Of a DNA stretch of 64,000 nt, positions 38,703-51,706 are shown piece by piece. The notes below the pieces were generated by a model that ran no database searches, was not told the origin of the DNA, and saw only the letters and a list, made by a program, of their open reading frames with translations. The position numbers were made by a program, and so were the translations under genes. Source of the DNA: Planctomycetota bacterium (GTDB taxonomy: Bacteria > Planctomycetota > B15-G4); the NCBI GenBank assembly GCA_038212275.1, contig JBBQUR010000010.1:123432-187431 (forward strand). The letters run 5' to 3'. Each line of letters opens with the position of its first letter. Within the stretch, counting starts at the first letter, position 1.

Positions 38703-41591
38703 GTGAGCGAGCCCGAGACACGTCCCGATCCGGACCGCCTGCTCGCGCAGCTCCGCGCCGAGGAGGAGAAGGCCCGTCGCGGCGCGCTGAAGATCTTCTT
38801 CGGCGCGTCGGCAGGCGTGGGCAAGACGTACACGATGCTCGAGGACGGCAGGAAGCAGCTCGCCGCCGGGCGCGATGTCGTCGTCGGTTACGTGGAGCCG
38901 CACGGGCGGCGCGAGACGGAGGCGCTGCTCGCGGGTCTGCCGCAGCTCGCGACGCGCCAGGTCAGTCACCGCGGCGTCGGCATGCTCGAGTTCGACGTGG
39001 ACGCCGCGCTCGCGCGCCGCCCCGCGCTCATCCTCGTGGACGAGCTGGCGCACACCAACGCGGACGGTTGCCGCCACGCCAAGCGCTGGCAGGACGTGGA
39101 GGACCTGCTCGCCGCGGGCATCGACGTGTACACGACGCTCAACGTGCAGCACCTTGAAAGCCTCAACGACATCGTCGCGCAGATCACCGGCGTCACCGTG
39201 CGCGAGACCCTGCCCGATGCGGTCTTCGAGCACGCCGACGACGTGGAGCTCATCGACCTCCCGCCGGACGACCTGCTCGCGCGGTTGCGCGAGGGCAAGG
39301 TCTACCTGCCGCAACTCGTGGAGCGCGCGCTGGCCGGCTTCTTCCGGCGCGGCAACCTCGTCGCGCTGCGCGAACTGGCGCTGCGCCGCACCGCGGATCG
39401 CGTGAATGCCGACGTGCTCTCCGTGCGCCGCCTGCAGGCCAGCCCGGGGCCGTGGCCGACGCGCGAGCGCGTGCTGGTGTGCCTCGGCCCGGACCGCGGT
39501 TCGGCCCGCGTCGTGCGCGCCGGGCGCCGCCTCGCCACGGCGCTGCGCGCGGACTGGATGGCAGCCACGGTGGAGACGCCGTTCACGAGGCGACTCTCGG
39601 AGGCGGGGCGCGCGCGCCTCGCGCAGAACCTGCGCCTCGCGGAGCGCCTCGGCGCGGAGACGATGACGCTCTCCGGCCAGCACATCGCCGACGAGATCCT
39701 GAGCTGCGCGCGCGCGCGCAACGTGACGCAGATCGTCGTGGGGGCGCCGGGAAAGCCGCGCTGGTTGCGCGCGGTCATCGGGTCCACCACCGACGACCTG
39801 ATCCGCTCGGGCGGCGACATCGACACGCACGTGGTGCCGCACGGCCGCGACGACGACGAGGACGCGGAGGCCGGTCGCGGCGAACAGGGCGACATGCGGG
39901 CGCCGCTCGCGCCCCGCCTCGCTCCGGGGGCCGAGCCCGAGGATGTGACGTCGCCGGCGCTGGGACCCGGCTATCGCGCCGCGGCGCTCGCCGTGCTCGC
40001 GAGCAGCGTGTTCGCCTGGCTGATGGACTGGGCGGGCCTCACCGAGGCCAACGTGATCATGACCTACCTGCTCGGCGTGGCCTATGTCGCGGCGCGGCAC
40101 GGGCGCGGCCCCGCCGTCGCGACGTCGGTCGCCAGCGTGGTGGCCTTCGATCTGCTCTTCGTGCCGCCGGCGTACACGCTCGCGGTGTCCGACACGCAGT
40201 ATCTGCTCACGTTCGCGGTGATGACCGGCATCGCGCTGCTCATCTCCGCGATGACGGTGCGCATCCGCGAGCAGGCCGAGGCCTCGCGCGAGCGCGAGCA
40301 GCGCACCGGCGCGCTCTTCCGCATGAGCCGCCACCTGTCCAGCACGACGGGCACGCTCACGCTCGTGCACGTCGCGCTGATCCAGCTCGCGGACGTGTTC
40401 GGCAAGGAGGTCACCATCCTGCTGCCCGGCGCCGACGGCCGGCTCGCGCCGCCGCCCGGCGCGCCGGCGGACTTCGTCGCGGTCGACGAACGCACGGGTG
40501 TCGCGCGCTGGGTCCTCGAGCACGGCCAGGCGGCGGGGCACGGCACGGACACGCTGCCCGGCTGCCAGGCACTTTACATGCCGCTGGCCGCGTCGCAGGG
40601 AACGCTCGGCGTGCTGGGCATCCGGCCGCCGCAGGGCGTGCAGCTTTCGGCGCCGGAGCAGCGCCAGCTTCTGGAGACGCTCGCCAACCAGATCGCGCTG
40701 GCGCTCGAACGCGACGCGCTGGCGCGTGCGGCGCAACAGGTGCAGGTGGCCGCGGAGACCGAGCGCCTGCGCAGTTCGCTGCTTGCCTCCGTCAGCCACG
40801 ACCTGCGCACGCCGCTGGCCGTCATCAGCGGCGCGAGCGGCGCGCTGCTCGACGAGGACGCATCGCGCGAGGGTGTCGTGCGGGACCCCGCCACGCGCCG
40901 GCAGATGCTGCAGAGCATCCACAGCGAGGCCGAGCGCCTCTCGCGCCTCGTGCGCAACCTGCTCGACATGACGCGCGTGGAGTCGGGCGCGCTGGTGCCC
41001 GAGTGCGAGTGGTTGCCGGTGGAGGAAGTCGTGGGGTCCGCGCTCAACGCGCTCGGCGGTCGACTTGCCGGGCGCGCGGTCAGCGTGGAGCTGCCTGCGG
41101 ACCTGCCGATGCTGCATGCCGACGGCGTACTGCTCGAGCAGGTCTTCATCAACCTGCTCGAGAATGCGCTGCGCCACACGCCCGAAGGCACGCCGATCGA
41201 GATCCGCGCACGCGCCGAGACCGCCTCCGGCAGCGCGCCGCGCGACGCACCCGGCGCGCCTGGCGCACTTGGCGCGCCTGGCGCACCCGGCGGCGCGACC
41301 TCCGGTGCGACGTCCGACGTGCGCGACGTCGTCATCGACTTCTCCGACCGCGGGCCGGGCATTCCGCTGGACGAGCTGCAGCGCGTGTTCGACAAGTTCT
41401 ACCGGAGCGAGCGCGGGCGCGGCGGCACGGGCCTCGGCCTGACCATCTGCCGCGGCATCCTGCAGGCGCACGGCGGCGGCATCGAGGCGCTTCCGCGCGA
41501 GGGCGGCGGCGCCACGTTCCGCCTGCGCATCCCGGTGAGCGGCCAGCCGCCCGCGCTTGCACCGGATCCCGCGCCGGATCCCGCGCCATGA
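38703..41591 (+). CDS. kdpD: Sensor histidine kinase KdpD
   Basis: GVGKTY, LVDELAHTN, USP domain, four TM, GAF, SHDLRTPL and HATPase. Confidence 0.97.
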   Translation: MSEPETRPDPDRLLAQLRAEEEKARRGALKIFFGASAGVGKTYTMLEDGRKQLAAGRDVVVGYVEPHGRRETEALLAGLPQLATRQVSHRGVGMLEFDVDAALARRPALILVDELAHTNADGCRHAKRWQDVEDLLAAGIDVYTTLNVQHLESLNDIVAQITGVTVRETLPDAVFEHADDVELIDLPPDDLLARLREGKVYLPQLVERALAGFFRRGNLVALRELALRRTADRVNADVLSVRRLQASPGPWPTRERVLVCLGPDRGSARVVRAGRRLATALRADWMAATVETPFTRRLSEAGRARLAQNLRLAERLGAETMTLSGQHIADEILSCARARNVTQIVVGAPGKPRWLRAVIGSTTDDLIRSGGDIDTHVVPHGRDDDEDAEAGRGEQGDMRAPLAPRLAPGAEPEDVTSPALGPGYRAAALAVLASSVFAWLMDWAGLTEANVIMTYLLGVAYVAARHGRGPAVATSVASVVAFDLLFVPPAYTLAVSDTQYLLTFAVMTGIALLISAMTVRIREQAEASREREQRTGALFRMSRHLSSTTGTLTLVHVALIQLADVFGKEVTILLPGADGRLAPPPGAPADFVAVDERTGVARWVLEHGQAAGHGTDTLPGCQALYMPLAASQGTLGVLGIRPPQGVQLSAPEQRQLLETLANQIALALERDALARAAQQVQVAAETERLRSSLLASVSHDLRTPLAVISGASGALLDEDASREGVVRDPATRRQMLQSIHSEAERLSRLVRNLLDMTRVESGALVPECEWLPVEEVVGSALNALGGRLAGRAVSVELPADLPMLHADGVLLEQVFINLLENALRHTPEGTPIEIRARAETASGSAPRDAPGAPGALGAPGAPGGATSGATSDVRDVVIDFSDRGPGIPLDELQRVFDKFYRSERGRGGTGLGLTICRGILQAHGGGIEALPREGGGATFRLRIPVSGQPPALAPDPAPDPAP

Positions 41592-42298
41592 GTGCCGACG
41601 TGCCGGCCAACCTGCCGCTCGTGCTCATCATCGAAGACGAGGCGCCGATCCGCAGCTTCCTGCGCGTGGCGCTCACGGGCCACGGCTATCGCGTGGTGGA
41701 GGCCGAGCGCGGCGACACCGGGCTCATCCACGCTGCAACCTACGTGCCGGACGTCGTGATCCTCGACCTCGGGCTGCCCGACATGGACGGACTGTCGGTG
41801 ACGCGGCGCCTGCGCGAGTGGAGCGCGGTGCCCCTCGTCGTGCTCTCTGCGCGCGGCCAGGAGAAGGACAAGGTAGCGGCGCTGGATGCCGGCGCGGACG
41901 ACTACCTCACCAAGCCCTTCTCCATGCCGGAGTTGCTTGCGCGACTGCGCGTCGCGCTGCGGCATGCGGCGGCTCGACAGCGGGGCGATGCCGGCGCCAC
42001 GGTGGAAACAGGTGGCCTGCGCCTCGACCTCGCCGCGCGCCGCGTGACGCTGGATGGCGCCGAGGTGCGCCTCACGAATCTGGAATACAAGCTGCTCGCG
42101 CACCTCGCGCGGCATGCGGGCCGGGTACTCACCCAGCGCCAGATCCTCAAAGAAGTGTGGGGCCCCGGCAGCGCCGGCCAGGCGCACACCCTGCGCGTCT
42201 TCATGTCGCAGCTCCGGCACAAGCTGGAGGCCGACCCCGCGCGCCCGCGCTACCTGCTCACCGAGCAAGGTGTCGGCTACCGCATGGCGGCGGAGTGA
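41588..42298 (+). CDS. kdpE: Response regulator KdpE
   Basis: IIEDE, DLGLPDMDG, GADDYLTKPF and OmpR-type wHTH ending TEQGVGYR. Confidence 0.96.
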   Translation: MSADVPANLPLVLIIEDEAPIRSFLRVALTGHGYRVVEAERGDTGLIHAATYVPDVVILDLGLPDMDGLSVTRRLREWSAVPLVVLSARGQEKDKVAALDAGADDYLTKPFSMPELLARLRVALRHAAARQRGDAGATVETGGLRLDLAARRVTLDGAEVRLTNLEYKLLAHLARHAGRVLTQRQILKEVWGPGSAGQAHTLRVFMSQLRHKLEADPARPRYLLTEQGVGYRMAAE

Positions 42299-42427: not shown

Positions 42428-42718
42428 ATGATCGCCAGCTTCGCGGACGAAACGACGGAGGCGCTGTTTCGTGGCGAGCCGTCGCTCGCCCTTCGACGAT
42501 TGCCGCCTCAGGTCCTGCGCCTGGCCGGCCGGAAACTCGACATGCTCGATGCCGCCACGGCGTTGCGCGATCTGCTGAAACCGCCCGGGAATCGGCTGCA
42601 TCCGTTGTGGGGCGACCTCCACGGCCTGTATGCGATTCGCGTGAACGACCAGTGGCGCATCGTGTTCCGCTGGGCAGGCGGCGACGCGCACGACGTAAGC
42701 CTGACGGACTATCACTGA
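42428..42718 (+). CDS. higB: HigB (RelE/ParE family) toxin
   Basis: MIASF, RKLDML, PPGNRL, IRVNDQWRI.FRW and DYH. Confidence 0.93.
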   Translation: MIASFADETTEALFRGEPSLALRRLPPQVLRLAGRKLDMLDAATALRDLLKPPGNRLHPLWGDLHGLYAIRVNDQWRIVFRWAGGDAHDVSLTDYH

Positions 42719-42733
42719 ATTGCGGAGATCCCC

Positions 42734-43021
42734 ATGCGTCCCACCAAGCGAATGCCGACCCATCCTGGCGAGGTGCTGCTCGAGGAATTCCTGGATCCGA
42801 TGGGGCTGACACAGGTGCAGCTCGCGCGGCACGTCGGCGTTCCCATTCAGCGCATCAACGAGATCATCCGCAAGCGGCGTGGCGTGTCGGCGGAGACGGC
42901 ATGGCTGCTCTCCCAGGCGCTTGGGACAACGCCCGAATTCTGGATGAATCTCCAGGTCAACCACGACCTCGTCGCGATGCGGCCGCCCCGCAGGATTTCA
43001 CCCCTGCGGCCTGCCAGCTGA
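42734..43021 (+). CDS. higA: HigA antitoxin (HTH)
   Basis: PTHPGEVLLEEFL, RINEII and FWMNLQ. Confidence 0.93.
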   Translation: MRPTKRMPTHPGEVLLEEFLDPMGLTQVQLARHVGVPIQRINEIIRKRRGVSAETAWLLSQALGTTPEFWMNLQVNHDLVAMRPPRRISPLRPAS

Positions 43022-43091: not shown

Positions 43092-43649
43092 TCAGAAGCG
43101 CGCCTCCAGGCTTCCGGCGTCTTCCGCCTGCGCGGCCGCGGGCGCCGAGACCTTCGCCGTGGCGAGCAGCCGCGGCGGCTGCGCGAACCAGCGCTCGGCG
43201 AAGTGCAGCGAGGCCGCTTCGATGAAGTCCTGCAACTCCGCCCACGGCAGCTCGTCCGTGCCGAGGCGCAGATGTTCCGTGGGCAGGTCGCGATCGAAGA
43301 CCGTCGCGTGGCAGGCCAGATGGATCTGCCGCCGCACCATGTCGATCTCGAGCGTGAACTCGCAGCGGCTGTAGGGGCGCGACGCGCGGCCCTTGCGCTG
43401 CTCGGGATCCAGCGGCTGCGCCAGGCCCAGCCTCCACGCGCCCGAGTCCATGCGCCGCACCGGCTGCAGCGACGGCAGCGTCTCGTGCAGCGACTGCAGG
43501 CAATCCGCCAGTCGCGCCTGCACCTGCTCGAGGATGGCGAGCGACGCCAGCGCCTCGCTCGTCACCGGGCCGCGCCGGCCTTCGGTGACGCGGCGTTCGC
43601 GCCGCGCGTGCAGCTCATGCAGCTTGTGGGTCAGGTCGTCTGCGGACAT
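43092..43649 (-). CDS. Hypothetical protein (185 aa)
   Basis: GGAGG RBS before ATG 43649; coding-like codon usage; no family recognised. Confidence 0.65.
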   Translation of the reverse strand: MSADDLTHKLHELHARRERRVTEGRRGPVTSEALASLAILEQVQARLADCLQSLHETLPSLQPVRRMDSGAWRLGLAQPLDPEQRKGRASRPYSRCEFTLEIDMVRRQIHLACHATVFDRDLPTEHLRLGTDELPWAELQDFIEAASLHFAERWFAQPPRLLATAKVSAPAAAQAEDAGSLEARF

Positions 43650-43715
43650 CACGCACCTCCGATTCATGCGGCGGGAAGGGTCTGAGGAAGTACGCGACGG
43701 CGAGGCCGCAAGTCC

Positions 43716-43790
43716 GCAACGCGCCGCCTGGCAACGCGCCCGCCGGAAACGCGCCTGCCGGAAACGCGCCTGCCCGCCGCGAAACGCCTC
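43716..43790. repeat. Degenerate 15-nt tandem repeat (G[AC]AACGCGCC-N5) x4-5
   Basis: Directly visible in intergenic DNA. Confidence 0.75.
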
Positions 43791-43848
43791 CACGCGCCGT
43801 GACTGCAACGCGCCGCTTCACCGGCCAGGCGAGGGTGCGGCGCGATGG

Positions 43849-44123: not shown

Positions 44124-45002
44124 GTGCAATTCCCCGTCACGCTGCAGTTCGGCGCCTTCGCGCTGTCGGTCCATGCGCTGCTGGAGCTGGCGGCGTATGC
44201 GATCGGCTTCGCGCTGCTGCGGCGCGGGCAGCGCAGGCACGGCGATGTCGTGGGGGCCGATGCGCGCTGGTCGCTCAACGTGGCGGCCATTCTCGGCGCG
44301 GCCGTCGGCTCCAAGCTCGTGCACGTCGCCGGCGATCCGGCTGCGCTGGTGGCGCACGCGACCGAGCCGATGTTCTGGCTCGGCGGCAAGTCGATGGTCG
44401 GCGGGCTGATCGGCGGCGCGGCGGCCGTGGAGTTCATGAAAGCGCGGATGGGCATCACGCGCCGCACCGGCGCCGGCCTCGTGCTGCCGCTGATCGCCGG
44501 GATCGCGGTCGGCCGCGTCGGCTGCTTCCTGTCGGGGCTCGACGACCAGACCTTCGGCACGGCGACGTCCCTGCCGTGGGGCGTGGACTTCGGCGACGGC
44601 ATCGCGCGCCATCCGACGCAGCTCTACGAGATCGCGTTCCTCGCGCTGCTCGGCCTCGCGCTGGCGCGCCCGCGCCCGCGCACGACGGCGCACACGCACG
44701 ACCCCACGCACACGCACGAACCCGCGCACACGCACGAACCCACGCACGCGCACACGCACGCAGGCTGGCTCGCTGGGCGCGAGGGCTGGCGATTCGACGC
44801 CTTCTTCTTCGCCTACCTCGGCTTCCGCTTCGGAGTGGATTTCCTCAAGCCATACGAGCATCTGGCCGCCCCGGTCGGTGGCGGCCTCGCGGCCACGCAA
44901 TGGGCCTGCCTCCTCGGCATCGTCGCGCGCTGTGCGTGGCTCGCGCGCACGCCGCGCTCGGCGGCGTCGATCGCACCGGTCGCGCAGCGAGGCGCGTCGT
45001 GA
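44124..45002 (+). CDS. Prolipoprotein diacylglyceryl transferase (Lgt) paralogue
   Basis: GGKSMVGGLIGG, GRVGCFL.G, LPWGVDFGDG..RHPTQLYE and Y..FRF..DFLK; GTG at 44124. Confidence 0.85.
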   Translation: MQFPVTLQFGAFALSVHALLELAAYAIGFALLRRGQRRHGDVVGADARWSLNVAAILGAAVGSKLVHVAGDPAALVAHATEPMFWLGGKSMVGGLIGGAAAVEFMKARMGITRRTGAGLVLPLIAGIAVGRVGCFLSGLDDQTFGTATSLPWGVDFGDGIARHPTQLYEIAFLALLGLALARPRPRTTAHTHDPTHTHEPAHTHEPTHAHTHAGWLAGREGWRFDAFFFAYLGFRFGVDFLKPYEHLAAPVGGGLAATQWACLLGIVARCAWLARTPRSAASIAPVAQRGAS

Positions 45003-46414
45003 CGGAGCGCGTGCGGCCATGGCTCTACTACGACATCGCGGTGTCGATCTGCTCGACGTGCTTCCGCAAGGTCGAGGGCAAGATCGTTTTCCAGGACGAC
45101 TGCGTGTTCATGCACAAGCGCTGCCCCGAGCACGGCGAGCAGCGCGTGCTCATCGCCGACGACGTGGCGTACTGGCGCCGCGCGCGCGAGGTGTTCATGA
45201 AGCCCTCGGAAATGCCGAAGCATTTCCAGACCGAGGTGAAGCACGGCTGCCCCTACGACTGCGGGCTGTGCGCGGATCACGAGCAGCACTCGTGCCTGAC
45301 GCTCATCGAGGTGGGCGACGGCTGCAATCTGCAATGCCCCATCTGCTACGCGGCGAGCGGGCCGCAGCGCATGAACTGGCGCTCGCTGGAAGACATCGAA
45401 CGCATGCTCGACGCGCTGGTCGCCAGCGAGGGCGAGCCGGACGTCGTGCAGATCTCCGGCGGCGAGCCCACGCTGCATCCGCGCTTCTTCGAGATTCTGG
45501 ACGCCGCGCGCCGCCGTCCGATCCGGCACCTGATGATCAACACCAACGGCACGCGCCTCGCGAACGAGGACGGCTTCGCCGAGCGGCTCGCGCCGTACAT
45601 GCCGGACTTCGAGGTGTATCTGCAGTTCGATTCCTTCGAGCGCGACGCGCTGGTCGCGCTGCGTGGCACGGACACGTCTGCGGTGCACGCGCGCGCGCTC
45701 GAGCGGCTCAACGCACTGAACATTTCGACCACGCTGGTGGTCACGCTGGCGCGCGGACGCAACGACCACGAGATCGGGCGCATCGTGGACTTCGCGCTGC
45801 AGCAGCGCTGCGTGCGCGGCGTCACGCTGCAGCCGGTGCAGGTGGCCGGGCGCGTGGAGGGCTTCGATCCCGCGCGCGACCGGATGACGCTGACCGAGGT
45901 GCGGCGGCGCCTGCTCGCGCAGACCTCCGTGTTCCGGCCCGAGGACGTGCTGCCCGTGCCGTGCCACCCCGACGCGATCGCGATGGCCTACGCGCTGAAA
46001 CTCGACGGCAAGGTGGTGCCGCTCACCGGCCTCATCGAGCCGCAACTGCTCATCGACGGCGGGCGCAACACCATCGCCTACGAGCGCGACGCCGGCCTGC
46101 AGAGCAAGCTCTTCGCCGCGTTCTCCACCGCGCACTCGCCCCAGTCGGGTGCGCAGAGTCTGCGCGAGCTGCTCTGCTGCCTGCCGCGCGTGCAGCTCGG
46201 GGCCGGTCTCGGTTATGACAACCTCTTCCGCGTGATCATCATGCAGTTCATGGACGCGCACTCCTTCGACGTGCGCTCCGTGAAGAAGAGCTGCGTGCAC
46301 ATCGTGCATCCGCGCGACCTGCGCATCATTCCCTTCGACACCTACAACCTCTTCTACCGCGACGAACTCGAGCGCACGCGCCTCGCGCCGCTCATCGCAG
46401 CGGGAGCGCGATGA
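44999..46414 (+). CDS. Radical SAM protein, tetraether-lipid-synthase (Tes/MJ0619)-like
   Basis: N-terminal CxxC...CPEHG, GCPYDCGLC..H, CNLQCPICYA, ISGGEPT and C-terminal SC.H...IIPF; GTGA overlap with the lgt-like gene. Confidence 0.85.
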   Translation: MTERVRPWLYYDIAVSICSTCFRKVEGKIVFQDDCVFMHKRCPEHGEQRVLIADDVAYWRRAREVFMKPSEMPKHFQTEVKHGCPYDCGLCADHEQHSCLTLIEVGDGCNLQCPICYAASGPQRMNWRSLEDIERMLDALVASEGEPDVVQISGGEPTLHPRFFEILDAARRRPIRHLMINTNGTRLANEDGFAERLAPYMPDFEVYLQFDSFERDALVALRGTDTSAVHARALERLNALNISTTLVVTLARGRNDHEIGRIVDFALQQRCVRGVTLQPVQVAGRVEGFDPARDRMTLTEVRRRLLAQTSVFRPEDVLPVPCHPDAIAMAYALKLDGKVVPLTGLIEPQLLIDGGRNTIAYERDAGLQSKLFAAFSTAHSPQSGAQSLRELLCCLPRVQLGAGLGYDNLFRVIIMQFMDAHSFDVRSVKKSCVHIVHPRDLRIIPFDTYNLFYRDELERTRLAPLIAAGAR

Positions 46415-46731
46415 ACGACGTGCCGCCACCCGACCAGGGTTCCATCAAGCAGGGACTGCTGCTCACGCTGGCGCTGCATGCGGCCGCCGTCGTGGCGTGC
46501 TGCCTGATCGCCGCGGTGACGGCCGGTGGCGCGGCCGGCGGCCTGGCTCCGTTCCTCGGCATCGGCCTGTTTCAGCTCCTGTACGTCGTGCCGGCGTTCG
46601 TGGTCTGCACGAAGAAGGGCCTGCTGCGCACGCGCAAGGGGCTGGCCCTCGGCGCCGGCATCACCTTCCTCGTGAATGCGGCGTGCACCGGCATCGTGCT
46701 GTACACGTTGCAGCTCGGCGGTGTCCGGTGA
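46411..46731 (+). CDS. Small three-TM membrane protein
   Basis: ATGA overlap with the radical SAM gene; last helix GITFLVNAACTG. Confidence 0.75.
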   Translation: MNDVPPPDQGSIKQGLLLTLALHAAAVVACCLIAAVTAGGAAGGLAPFLGIGLFQLLYVVPAFVVCTKKGLLRTRKGLALGAGITFLVNAACTGIVLYTLQLGGVR

Positions 46732-49725: not shown

Positions 49726-50256
49726 TCAGGTGTCGGTGTGAAGCGCGGCACGGATCGCATTCGCGTCACGCACGGGTCCCTGCCCGACACCCGGGCAGAA
49801 TGATGCCACATCGCGCTGCCACGTGCGCTCGTCCGTCAGCAGTTCGGGCCAGAAAGGGAAGGTGCGGCACTGGCTCGGGCGCAGCGTGTAGACCGAGCAG
49901 CGGCCGCCTTCGAGAAAGACGCAGCCCTGGTTCACGGACTTGAAGGACAGGTGGCCCTCGATGCGCTCGCAGTACTTCGCCTCGAAGGCGCGCTCCGAGA
50001 TCCCGAAGTGCGCCGCCAGGGCGCGTCGCTCGGCGCGGGTCGAGTACACGTATTCGAAGCCCTCGCCGTGGTTTTCGCAGCACTTGCCGCAGGCCGTGCA
50101 CTGGAAGCGCAGCCCGTCGAACCACCACGGCGCGGCTGGATCGCGAGGCGCAGCCGGATCGCGAGGCGCAGCCGGATCGCGGGGCGCGGCGGGGCCCGCG
50201 GCATGCGCGGCGGCGCGAGGGGCGTCGGGCGCGGCATCGGAGGTGGTGTCGCTCAC
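49726..50256 (-). CDS. YkgJ family (CxxCxxCC) cysteine-cluster protein
   Basis: GLRFQCTACGKCC, CVFL, CSVY..RP.QCRTFPFW and CPG; GTG at 50256. Confidence 0.9.
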   Translation of the reverse strand: MSDTTSDAAPDAPRAAAHAAGPAAPRDPAAPRDPAAPRDPAAPWWFDGLRFQCTACGKCCENHGEGFEYVYSTRAERRALAAHFGISERAFEAKYCERIEGHLSFKSVNQGCVFLEGGRCSVYTLRPSQCRTFPFWPELLTDERTWQRDVASFCPGVGQGPVRDANAIRAALHTDT

Positions 50257-51653
50257 GTCGGTGCGTTCCACGACACGCTGAGCGGGCGGCTGAACTGCCG
50301 GTAGCCGTCGGGACTGCCGAGGAAGCCGAAACCGCTCTGCTTCACGCCGCACCAGGGCGGGTCGCCTGCGCCGCCAAGCCCGCGGTTTACGCCGACCTGC
50401 CCGGACTCCAGCCGGCTGGCCAGCGCCACGCCGCGCTCCGTGTCGCCGCACCACACGCTGGCGCCGAGGCCGTAGGGCGACGCGTTGGCGAGGCCGATGG
50501 CCTGCTCGGCATCGTCGACGGCGCGGATGGCCGCGACGGGGCCGAAGGTCTCGCGCTGCATGAGGTCCATGTGCTCGTCGACGTCGGCCACGACGGTGGG
50601 CGGCAGGAAGGCGCCGGGGCCGGGCAGTTCGTGGCCGCCGAGCAGGATGCGCGCGCCGCGGCGACGCGCGTCTTCTACCTGCGCGAGCACCGCCCGGCGC
50701 TGGGCCTCGCTGGCCATCGGCCCCATGAAGGTGTCGGGGTTGCTCGTGTCGCCGACCTTGAGCGCGCCGGCCTTCTCGACGACCAGGCGGGTGAAGCGCT
50801 CCGCGACGGCGCGCTCGACGTAGATGCGCTCCACCGAGCAGCACACCTGCCCGCTGTTGCGCATGGACTCGCGCACGGCGTACTCGGCCGCGCGCTCGAG
50901 ATCCGCATCGGCGCAGACGATCATCGGGTCCTTGCCGCCCAGCTCGAGCACCATGCGCTTCAGCGAGCCGGCGCAGGATTGCATGATGTGCCGGCCTGCC
51001 TCCGAACTGCCCACGAACGCCACCATGTCGATCGGCGCCGCGACGAGCGCCTTGCCGGTGAGGTCGTCGCCCTGCACCATTTCCAGCACGTGGGCGGGCA
51101 GTTCCGCGGCGAAGGTCTCGTGGAGCGCGGCGCCCGTGAGCGGCACGATCTCGGAGGGCTTGAAGACGACCGTGTTGCCCGCCATGAGCGCCGGGATGAG
51201 CAGCTCGCGCGCCATGCCGAGCGGGAAGTTCCACGGGGTGATCGCGGCCACCACGCCCAGCGGCTCACGCGAGAGGCGCGTCATGAGTTTGTCCGTGCGG
51301 GCCTCGACGGGCGCCAGCGCGGCGCAGGCGGACTCGCCGAGCGAGCGGATGCCCCGGGCCATGGCGCCGGCTTCACCCCGCGCCGCCGTGATGGGTTTGC
51401 CCATTTCGGCACTGATCAGGCCGGCGACGCGCTCCACGAGCGCCGGGTCGTCCCAGCGCCGCGCGACACGCTCGAGCACGGCGGCTCGCCCGGGCAGGCC
51501 GAGTCCGGCCCATGGACCCAGCGCCGCGCGCGCCCGGGCCACCGCTCGGGCGACGGCGGCGGCATCGGCGCACGGGACCCGCGCCAGCACGGTGCCGGTG
51601 GCCGGGTTGATGTCCACCAGTTCGCGTACGGTCGCGGTCGCCTCACCGGTCAT
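50253..51653 (-). CDS. Aldehyde dehydrogenase
   Basis: ITPWNFP, KPSE, LELGGKDP, SGQVC and ETFGPV. Confidence 0.95.
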   Translation of the reverse strand: MTGEATATVRELVDINPATGTVLARVPCADAAAVARAVARARAALGPWAGLGLPGRAAVLERVARRWDDPALVERVAGLISAEMGKPITAARGEAGAMARGIRSLGESACAALAPVEARTDKLMTRLSREPLGVVAAITPWNFPLGMARELLIPALMAGNTVVFKPSEIVPLTGAALHETFAAELPAHVLEMVQGDDLTGKALVAAPIDMVAFVGSSEAGRHIMQSCAGSLKRMVLELGGKDPMIVCADADLERAAEYAVRESMRNSGQVCCSVERIYVERAVAERFTRLVVEKAGALKVGDTSNPDTFMGPMASEAQRRAVLAQVEDARRRGARILLGGHELPGPGAFLPPTVVADVDEHMDLMQRETFGPVAAIRAVDDAEQAIGLANASPYGLGASVWCGDTERGVALASRLESGQVGVNRGLGGAGDPPWCGVKQSGFGFLGSPDGYRQFSRPLSVSWNAPT

Positions 51654-51706
51654 GCCCTGTCTCCGGAATAATCCCACGCCTTGGCAAAGCCCGGTATCTT
51701 ACGGAC

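Follow-up and report, generated by a model that had tools for sequence, protein, structure and literature searches.

What does a bacterium make with a paralog of the lipoprotein transferase Lgt, a radical SAM enzyme built like the archaeal tetraether synthase GDGT-MAS (Tes), and a small membrane protein with a lipobox-like cysteine, when the three are encoded in overlapping genes? Such a cassette (genes g1, g2 and g3) lies at positions 44,124 to 46,731 of the window, a 64,000-nucleotide stretch of contig JBBQUR010000010.1 from the Planctomycetota bacterium assembly GCA_038212275.1. Comparison of the three genes with their relatives shows that the cassette is a widespread bacterial module and suggests that it probably makes a specially lipidated membrane protein.

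Lgt has been treated as a housekeeping enzyme with one job, and Tes-type enzymes as archaeal tetraether makers. Here distinct clades of both are locked together in at least eight bacterial phyla, with carriers that include cultured aerobes (Chitinophaga) and cyanobacteria. The small proteins travelling with both enzymes have the lipobox-like cysteine as their sole common feature. A first-pass annotation of the window had taken the trio to be one system for which no function was characterized. Gene linkage, co-occurrence among genomes and a natural fusion bear out the first point. As to the second, a literature search that combined Lgt with radical SAM, tetraether synthase or GDGT-MAS terms, and did not cover the paper naming the TrsS family, found no description of such a cassette.

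Conservation of the cassette

The stop codon of g1 and the start codon of g2 share the letters GTGA, and those of g2 and g3 share ATGA; the open reading frame (ORF) coordinates thus agree with the coupling by overlaps that had been noticed at first pass. The starts of g1 and g2 also agree with their family alignments, which begin at residues 1–4.

We followed the arrangement in the best 80 of 299 relatives obtained by scanning one genome per species. These loci (58–85% identity) belong to at least eight phyla, with 33 in Acidobacteriota, 25 in Bacteroidota, 10 in Planctomycetota, six in Cyanobacteriota, two in Myxococcota and single members in others, and the g2 clade is present in Chitinophaga, Cyanobium and Leptolyngbya. 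In 67 of the 80 loci the radical SAM gene has a g1-type gene no more than 5 kb away. Three of the 13 loci that have no linked g1-type gene possess fewer than 600 bases of upstream sequence, and in all five further unlinked cases tested a g1-type gene was found elsewhere in the genome, at 292–326 bits.

The same association was seen at the level of whole genomes. Among 61 relatives of the window's genome, which are kin, so that the co-occurrence counts are not independent, a radical SAM match at E ≤ 1e-30 occurs in 10; none is found in the 15 genomes of the same family. An in-clade radical SAM enzyme is present in eight genomes and a g1-type match in exactly the same eight (seven at 107–320 bits and one partial match at 80 bits), where the g1-type gene adjoins the radical SAM gene. 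In addition, one natural chain of 733 residues (P0151) contains LGT, zinc ribbon and Radical_SAM domains. This fusion points to physical cooperation of both enzymes, with the C-terminus of the transferase predicted to be cytoplasmic. No Lgt-radical SAM fusions of 826 residues or more were found, which is weak evidence.

All-against-all clustering of the ORFs in the 80 loci identified nothing in more than nine loci besides g1, g2 and their shadow frames. Because the g1-g2-g3 arrangement recurs in other phyla, we judge from these comparisons that it is far beyond chance. Together, the linkage, the genome-level co-occurrence and the fusion argue that g1, g2 and the small cysteine protein are one module.

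Some loci differ in layout or content. In four Planctomycetota loci (L008, L010, L012 and L013) the Lgt paralog is 3' of the radical SAM gene, not 5', and the radical SAM enzyme of L013 is only 40% identical to that of the window with its partner still present. The radical SAM gene of L012 (G033:C48:16536-17690) has an in-frame TAG and matches only over residues 2–383; the g1-type gene there gives a partial match, at 80 bits, and the cassette may be in decay at this locus. Upstream of the cassette in eight Acidobacteriota loci (L028:2457-3215 and seven others) is a gene for a VTT/DedA-domain membrane protein (Pfam VTT_dom, 37.4 bits).

The radical SAM enzyme

Pfam searches of g2 identified Radical_SAM (99.4 bits) and Zn_ribbon_HMPTM (59.1 bits), and phmmer aligned it to the GDGT-MAS entry 7TOL with an E value of 8.3e-61. 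The AlphaFold2 (AF2) model of g2 had a predicted local distance difference test score (pLDDT) of 86.8 and a predicted template modeling score (pTM) of 0.88, with residues 376–399 below a pLDDT of 50. Foldseek matched the model to 7TOM (E 1.2e-37; template modeling (TM) scores 0.81 and 0.77), and VIA-align superposed 426 residues on GDGT-MAS with Z 47.3 and a root-mean-square deviation of 2.9 Å, the runner-up entry having Z 19.6. As modeled, g2 has the GDGT-MAS fold over its whole length.

The published motifs of GDGT-MAS, as given in parts of Lloyd et al. 2022 (PMC9433317), are a rubredoxin-like C9X2C12X20C33X2H36, an auxiliary C73/C77/C80 with a histidine, and Met439 as the labile ligand of the C-terminal [4Fe-4S] cluster. 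The motifs that the first-pass annotation had named are all in g2, namely C18xxC21...C42xxH45, CPYDCGLC (C84-P-Y-D-C88-G-L-C91, the letters of the auxiliary motif) and C109xxxC113xxC116; their conservation is given in Table 1. M415 of g2 aligns with Met439. Of the 81 clade members, 58 have Met at this position, 19 have Val and four have Leu, and the loop at residues 376–399 is the one that was modeled poorly.

The same annotation had described g2 as Tes-like. This stands for the four-cofactor architecture and the fold, and the structural comparison upholds it (Z 47.3); it does not extend to orthology. The best NCBIfam scores of g2 were 295.1 bits for TrsS (cut-off 490) and 263 bits for Tes (cut-off 450), both below the equivalog thresholds. 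For a tree, 69 of the 150 representatives listed were kept (at least about 420 residues, with most of the query covered), and 81 shorter or partial ones were dropped. Of these 69 full-length relatives, one passed the Tes cut-off (P0297, 556 bits), four passed that of TrsS and 64 passed neither. FastTree, a quick method used here with only one Tes row and an arbitrary root set on that row, placed the window's enzyme among the 70 rows in a clade of 12 (support 99), within a subclade of six (support 96) that also includes the Lgt fusion. The TrsS rows were near the Tes row, and both lay far from the window's clade. Because of the score of 263 bits against 450 and the separate clade, g2 is classed here as not a Tes ortholog.

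Relatives of g2 are abundant in the databases, with at least 8000 candidates, all scored ones being significant, and 653 of the 50%-identity representatives at E ≤ 1e-30. Their annotations are generic or borrowed, such as "radical SAM protein", "tetraether lipid synthase" and "7,8-dihydro-6-hydroxymethylpterin dimethyltransferase".

The Lgt paralog

The Pfam LGT model (PF01790) matched g1 at 77.3 bits against a cut-off of 24.9, over residues 4–180 of g1 and positions 1–176 of the 240 in the model. The match ends at position 176 because of an insert in g1; the Chitinophaga rupis homolog covers positions 1–230. Against the TIGR00544 equivalog g1 scored only 27.4 bits (cut-off 118.9), and it fell under every NCBIfam Lgt cut-off. 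The genome has a second, separate Lgt on another contig, which scored 184.6 bits with Pfam LGT and passed TIGR00544 at 123.1 bits, and it also encodes LspA. Since the same genome carries both a passing Lgt and LspA, the scores identify g1 as a true paralog of canonical Lgt, in agreement with its first description. The g1 family aligned with the genome's canonical Lgt at a probability of 99.2 over 226 columns (hhalign). The AF2 model of g1 (pLDDT 86.5) had E. coli Lgt (5AZB) as its sole Foldseek match at E ≤ 0.001 (E 5.1e-7; TM 0.54 and 0.56).

In E. coli Lgt, R143 and R239 are catalytic, and Y235, E243 and R246 are mutation-intolerant, according to parts of Mao et al. 2016 (PMC4728403). The g1 counterparts are R131 for R143, E169 for E202, Y231 for Y235, R235 for R239, D239 for E243 and K242 for R246. 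The last two replacements are both conservative, and we count this catalytic or mutation-intolerant set as kept in g1. Y231, R235 and K242, which align to the canonical Y-x3-R-x3-E-x2-R, are invariant in all 32 members of the g1 family, as are G130, R131, G133 and C134. The Lgt signature is altered, reading G-R-V-G-C-F-L-S-G in g1 against G142-R-L-G-N-F-I-N-G-E-L-W-G154 in E. coli, and the HGGL motif reads V-G-G-L. These departures are a weak feature in this lineage because the genome's canonical Lgt likewise has Cys at the N146 position and no His. For the same reason Cys134, considered as a special mark of the g1 paralog, was rejected as such.

Two features set the window's g1 apart from its relatives. 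Residue 117 is Ala (Table 1), and an assembly error was rejected as its cause, since another sample of the same study yielded a contig that spans 44,385 to 44,849 with no differences, the Ala117 codon included. The counterpart of this position in E. coli Lgt is D129, and D129A and D129N variants are active, as reported in parts of PMC4728403; because the change is tolerated there, Ala117 is unlikely to be inactivating. The second feature is the insert of about 29 residues, which was modeled with pLDDT of 55–59 and has no equivalent in other family members in an alignment of 63 homologs.

The small proteins and their cysteine

g3 is without a Pfam or NCBIfam match and is single copy in its own genome. 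A canonical lipobox is found in an N-terminal signal peptide ending in [LVI][ASTVI][GAS]C. The g3 sequence departs from this pattern in that the segment is its third helix and position –3 is Asn. The final hydrophobic helix does carry the VNAAC that had been singled out at first pass (V88-N-A-A-C92), and a basic stretch, an uncharged hydrophobic stretch and a conserved outer-side Cys are all present, based on charge counts and cysteine conservation. In the g3 family, Lys plus Arg average 2.8 residues at the N-terminus, 3.5 in loop 2 and 0.45 in the tail; loop 1 averages 0.2 and the 14-residue stretch preceding the Cys 0.1, and the predicted topology is N-in, C-out. By this distribution Cys92 would be in the outer half of the last helix, 14 residues past the basic cytoplasmic loop. 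That would put it on the side of the Lgt active site, where a lipobox Cys would sit; the site is on the outer side of the membrane according to parts of PMC4728403.

The cysteine, whose conservation was one of the points raised at first pass, is shared by 19 of the 20 members aligned and by 23 of 27 database hits, all 27 of which are unnamed; it is well conserved and not invariant. The only conserved positions of the 20-member alignment are G15, G52, G77 (invariant) and C92, together with polar residues inside the helices (G52-x2-Q-x2-Y-x2-P and N89). Mean column identity in the g3 family is 28%, against 58–85% identity for the enzymes across phyla.

With jackhmmer, g3 relatives were identified in 23 of the 80 loci, with two to four tandem copies in at least nine. 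In Bacteroidota the gene after the radical SAM gene encodes a three-helix protein of 85–112 residues whose C-terminal end is L-L-x-G-F-[S/G]-x-C followed by a short tail, and its start often overlaps the radical SAM stop by four bases. A strict rule (at least two K/R, 12 uncharged hydrophobic residues and a Cys within the last 26 residues) picked out a downstream ORF in 38 of 77 loci; among all other ORFs it picked out 27 of 4588. The union of homology, the strict rule and a relaxed rule, the last with a background of 106 of 4588 ORFs, placed a cysteine protein beside the enzymes in 52 of the 80 loci. All 10 Planctomycetota loci have the three parts.

Of the remaining loci, 23 were inspected by eye. 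In eight Acidobacteriota loci the motif is N-terminal in a small ORF between g1 and g2, where basic and hydrophobic stretches are followed by G-[G/L/S]-[S/G/A]-C, much like an ordinary lipoprotein signal. Nine loci have, instead of a small ORF, a 281-residue polytopic protein with this same N-terminus. Since the motif can be at either terminus of proteins that have no other relation, what the third component shares is, by these alignments, a portable motif and not a protein family. The pattern of highly conserved enzymes beside small proteins that diverge fast and vary in number suits substrates.

Beyond the Cys only 3–25 residues follow in the window and in most loci. Many of these tails end in N-[F/M]-H, sometimes then G-H, 8–15 residues after the Cys (L019, L035, L070-L072, L074, L076 and L088, from three phyla), and the 281-residue Acidobacteriota protein (L028:4145-4987) has M-N-F-N-G at the same distance; the N-[F/M]-H tail may be a second conserved element. 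One 161-residue protein (L043:1726-2211) has two copies of the basic/hydrophobic/S-S-[A]-C motif, as might result from the joining of two substrate units. A complex prediction for g1 with g3 scored 0.02 against a mark of 0.32; controls were not folded, and the result weighs neither way.

Proposed mechanism and alternatives

From the gene order, overlaps, linkage, co-occurrence, fusion, conserved residues and folds described above, we infer the chemistry of two steps. The g1 enzyme, with its Lgt fold and retained catalytic arginines, would move a diacylglyceryl group from a phospholipid to the conserved Cys thiol of g3-type proteins. The helix of the acceptor would come after a basic cytoplasmic loop and hold the Cys in its outer half, which would place it like a lipobox Cys after its signal peptide. 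In the second and weaker step, cytoplasmic g2, in complex with g1, would use 5'-deoxyadenosyl radicals on an unactivated carbon of the g1-held lipid, either while this is still the donor or once it has been transferred as the anchor. The product would have a new C-C (or C-S) bond, for example in a closed-ring or tail-to-tail coupled anchor. This reading, S-lipidation of dedicated cysteine proteins by g1 and remodeling of the lipid by the Tes-like g2, is the one we favor, tentatively and at a little below an even chance. A more specific form of it, in which the docked or fused Tes-like enzyme joins acyl-chain ends on the lipidated small protein to give a protein-bound macrocyclic or membrane-spanning (bola-type) lipid, we regard as rather unlikely.

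Several observations weigh against the proposed lipidation and remodeling. The geometry is awkward, as the radical SAM enzyme is cytoplasmic and both the Cys and the Lgt site are turned toward the outer leaflet. g2 is outside both the Tes and TrsS equivalogs, so that Tes chemistry is not simply transferable to it; its C-terminal Cys set (C322/C393/C394/C432) differs from that of GDGT-MAS, and the labile-Met position is Met in only 58 of 81 members. The window's g1 has Ala at a near-invariant Asp as well as the 29-residue insert. On the acceptor side, the Cys is absent from one of the 20 aligned members and four of the 27 database hits, no cysteine protein was found by any criterion in 20 of the 80 loci (at least five of which have fewer than 350 bases downstream), and the lipobox is not canonical, with Asn at –3 in the window and the Cys internal or near the C-terminus.

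An alternative that we consider rather unlikely is that g1 and g2 build an unusual free lipid, such as a tail-to-tail coupled (membrane-spanning or macrocyclic) diacylglycerol lipid of iso-diabolic acid or branched glycerol dialkyl glycerol tetraether (brGDGT) type, with the small proteins as accessories. Parts of the literature describe Tes as coupling lipid tails and binding ester phospholipids (PMC9433317; PMC13274423), and bacterial Tes homologs have been noted and proposed to act in brGDGT synthesis (Zeng et al. 2022, PMC8941075). Acidobacteriota contribute 33 of the 80 loci, and eight loci have the VTT/DedA-domain gene 5' of the cassette. A free lipid would not explain, however, why the Cys motif recurs or why the small genes stand in tandem, and the clade is found in Chitinophaga, Cyanobium and Leptolyngbya. 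These genera are not known for membrane-spanning lipids. Moreover, Tes homologs were found in only three of 14 acidobacteria producing iso-diabolic acid (Sahonero-Canavesi et al. 2022, PMC13159169, in part), and Lgt-family enzymes are known from parts of PMC4728403 as protein-Cys transferases only. We give still less credence to peptide-directed radical chemistry, in which g2 would make a thioether or C-C link at or near the small-protein Cys, in the manner of maturases for peptides that are made on ribosomes and modified after translation (RiPPs), and g1 would supply lipid or anchor the complex. Tandem, fast-evolving small genes beside a radical SAM gene do resemble precursor peptide arrays, many tails end in N-[F/M]-H, and the RiPP maturases SuiB and SkfB are among the nearest solved structures after GDGT-MAS (Z 19.4–19.6). 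Yet their matches are limited to the common radical SAM core (TM 0.36–0.39), and it is a lipid enzyme that matches over the whole length. The Pfam search of g2 identified no SPASM-type or peptide-recognition domain, and what the phyla have in common is limited to the Cys and the small residues preceding it.

The small proteins could also be subunits, that is, membrane adaptors or scaffolds of a g1-g2 complex with a catalytic, redox or metal-binding Cys. The polar residues kept inside the g3-family helices (G52-x2-Q-x2-Y-x2-P and N89) would suit such a role, as would the position of the small genes directly beside the enzymes, often with overlapping stop and start codons. Against this, the motif shifts between the C- and N-terminus of otherwise unrelated proteins, the copy number ranges from one to four and the remainder of the sequence is poorly conserved. 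All three properties agree better with a recognition signal that is portable than with a fixed subunit, and we think the subunit role quite unlikely. Least probable of all, and very much so, is that the cassette in this genome is a decaying, horizontally acquired relic that no longer works. One could cite Ala117, where 31 of 32 members have Asp, the unique g1 insert, the lack of the cassette in 15 genomes of the same family, the adjoining HigB/HigA pair and the in-frame TAG in the radical SAM gene of a relative (G033). But the three frames are open and still overlap, every g2 cofactor ligand is intact, the identical sequence is present in the contig of a second sample, and E. coli Lgt tolerates D129A/N (PMC4728403, in part).

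Feature coordinates and gene neighborhood

The neighbors on both sides of the cassette look unrelated to g1-g3 in a family search of the flanking ORFs (Table 1). On the 5' side are KdpD and KdpE, which overlap by four bases, then the HigB/HigA pair directly 5' of the cassette region, and a minus-strand ORF without a family; on the 3' side is a gene resembling a hibernation factor (S30AE). G+C content across the window is 63–75%. A promoter and terminator scan gave nothing usable for the operon, with one promoter-like site within g2 and two hairpins 5' of g1. No RNA record matched the stretch; the matching records are only DNA contigs of sediment and water metagenomes.

Table 1. Positions in the window of the cassette genes, their motifs and neighboring features.
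Feature	Positions	Strand	Remarks
g1, Lgt-family paralog	44124-45002	+	GTG start, 292 aa; predicted multi-helix membrane enzyme
g2, radical SAM enzyme with GDGT-MAS (Tes) architecture	44999-46414	+	GTG start, 471 aa
g3, candidate substrate with three hydrophobic helices	46411-46731	+	ATG start, 106 aa membrane protein
g1 codon 117, GCC (Ala)	44472..44474	+	Asp in the other 31 of 32 family members and in canonical Lgt
g1 signature G130-R-V-G-C-F	44511..44528	+	Aligned to 5AZB; start of the E. coli Lgt signature motif (R143, N146)
g1 His/Thr/Pro-rich repetitive insert, about 29 residues	44685..44771	+	Gap columns in alignment of 63 homologs
g1 C-terminal motif Y231-x3-R235-x3-D239-x2-K242-P	44814..44852	+	Spacing as in E. 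coli Lgt Y235/R239/E243/R246
g2 rubredoxin-like iron site C18-x2-C21-x20-C42-x2-H45	45050..45133	+	Kept in 80–81 of 81 clade members
g2 N-terminal auxiliary [4Fe-4S] motif C84, C88, C91 (with H94, H97, C99)	45248..45295	+	Kept in 81 of 81
g2 radical SAM cluster C109-x3-C113-x2-C116	45323..45346	+	81 of 81 clade members; 49 of 49 rows of a wider alignment
g2 C-terminal domain C322, C393, C394, C432	45962..46294	+	Four Cys kept in 81 of 81
g3 signal-like segment: basic loop K68-K76, hydrophobic 78-91, N89-A-A-C92	46612..46686	+	Contains the conserved C92
KdpD sensor kinase	38703-41591	+	962 aa
KdpE-type response regulator	41588-42298	+	
HigB-like toxin	42428-42718	+	Pfam HigB-like_toxin, 63.2 bits
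HTH_3 antitoxin-like gene	42734-43021	+	
ORF without family	43092-43808	-	
Hairpin	43886-43855	-	Strong; 14 pairs, then seven T; between the minus-strand ORF and g1
CxxCxxCC-domain protein and aldehyde dehydrogenase	49726-51677	-	Overlapping genes; adjoined by an ornithine cyclodeaminase-like gene and a family 2 glycosyltransferase

Implications

If lipidation by g1 and remodeling by g2 are correct, the cassette would represent a second, specialized bacterial route of protein lipidation with radical tailoring, and a very abundant, unnamed radical SAM family would gain a testable function. Caution would also be due in using bacterial Tes homologs as genomic markers of brGDGT producers, which bears on palaeoclimate proxies; parts of a 2026 review state that such homologs have still been detected only bioinformatically (PMC13459092). 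Should the product be a protein-bound coupled lipid, Tes-type tail coupling would for the first time be known on bacterial ester lipids, and for the first time on a lipoprotein, and many of the "bacterial Tes homologs" counted as brGDGT markers would do something else.

Comparison with known systems

The closest known enzyme to g2 is GDGT-MAS/Tes (MJ0619; PDB 7TOL/7TOM; NF045702). Both have the same four-domain architecture and fold (Z 47.3; TM 0.81), with the same CX2CX20CX2H spacing, the CX3CX2C auxiliary motif with His and the CX3CX2C radical SAM motif, as well as a conserved FxD segment beside the residue aligned with the labile Met (Phe417 and Asp419 in g2). They differ in that identity is only about 28–30% and that the C-terminal domain of g2 is shorter, with another set of Cys. 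In addition, g2 is bacterial and tied to an Lgt paralog, a tie not described for Tes in the parts of the literature searched. TrsS (NF045646), a radical SAM (seleno)protein of the same superfamily that is listed by name in a table of a review (PMC13188914, in part), is the best-scoring NCBIfam model for g2, at 295.1 bits and nearly full length. Compared by score and tree only, g2 is under its cut-off of 490, and the four representatives that pass are near the Tes row.

A likeness of a different kind, by description, is to Mss of Thermotoga and Clostridia, a radical SAM enzyme that couples the acyl tails of bacterial ester lipids (PMC13159169 and PMC13459092, both in part). Its activity means that tail-coupling chemistry exists in bacteria. 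Mss is only remotely related to Tes (PMC13159169, in part), and the available parts of the two papers mention no Lgt partner or cysteine protein for it.

For g1 the reference is E. coli Lgt (PDB 5AZB/5AZC; PF01790; TIGR00544), with which it has in common the Pfam match, the fold, invariant counterparts of R143, Y235 and R239, and a retained E202. It differs in the TM-score of only about 0.55, in E243 to D and R246 to K, in N146 to C and N149 to S after GRxG, with E151 lacking an aligned counterpart, and in the His of HGGL, which is Val. Unlike canonical Lgt, g1 always has a radical SAM enzyme as its partner, sometimes fused with it in one chain.

Canonical lipoprotein maturation by Lgt, LspA and Lnt follows the same acceptor logic of basic residues, hydrophobic stretch, small residues and Cys, and some Acidobacteriota motifs are N-terminal and read L-S-S-C or G-G-C, as in an ordinary lipobox. 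In the window and most loci, by contrast, a small polytopic protein carries the motif as its final helix, often with Asn or Phe at –3, and to the canonical scheme the cassette would add a dedicated transferase and a radical SAM step.

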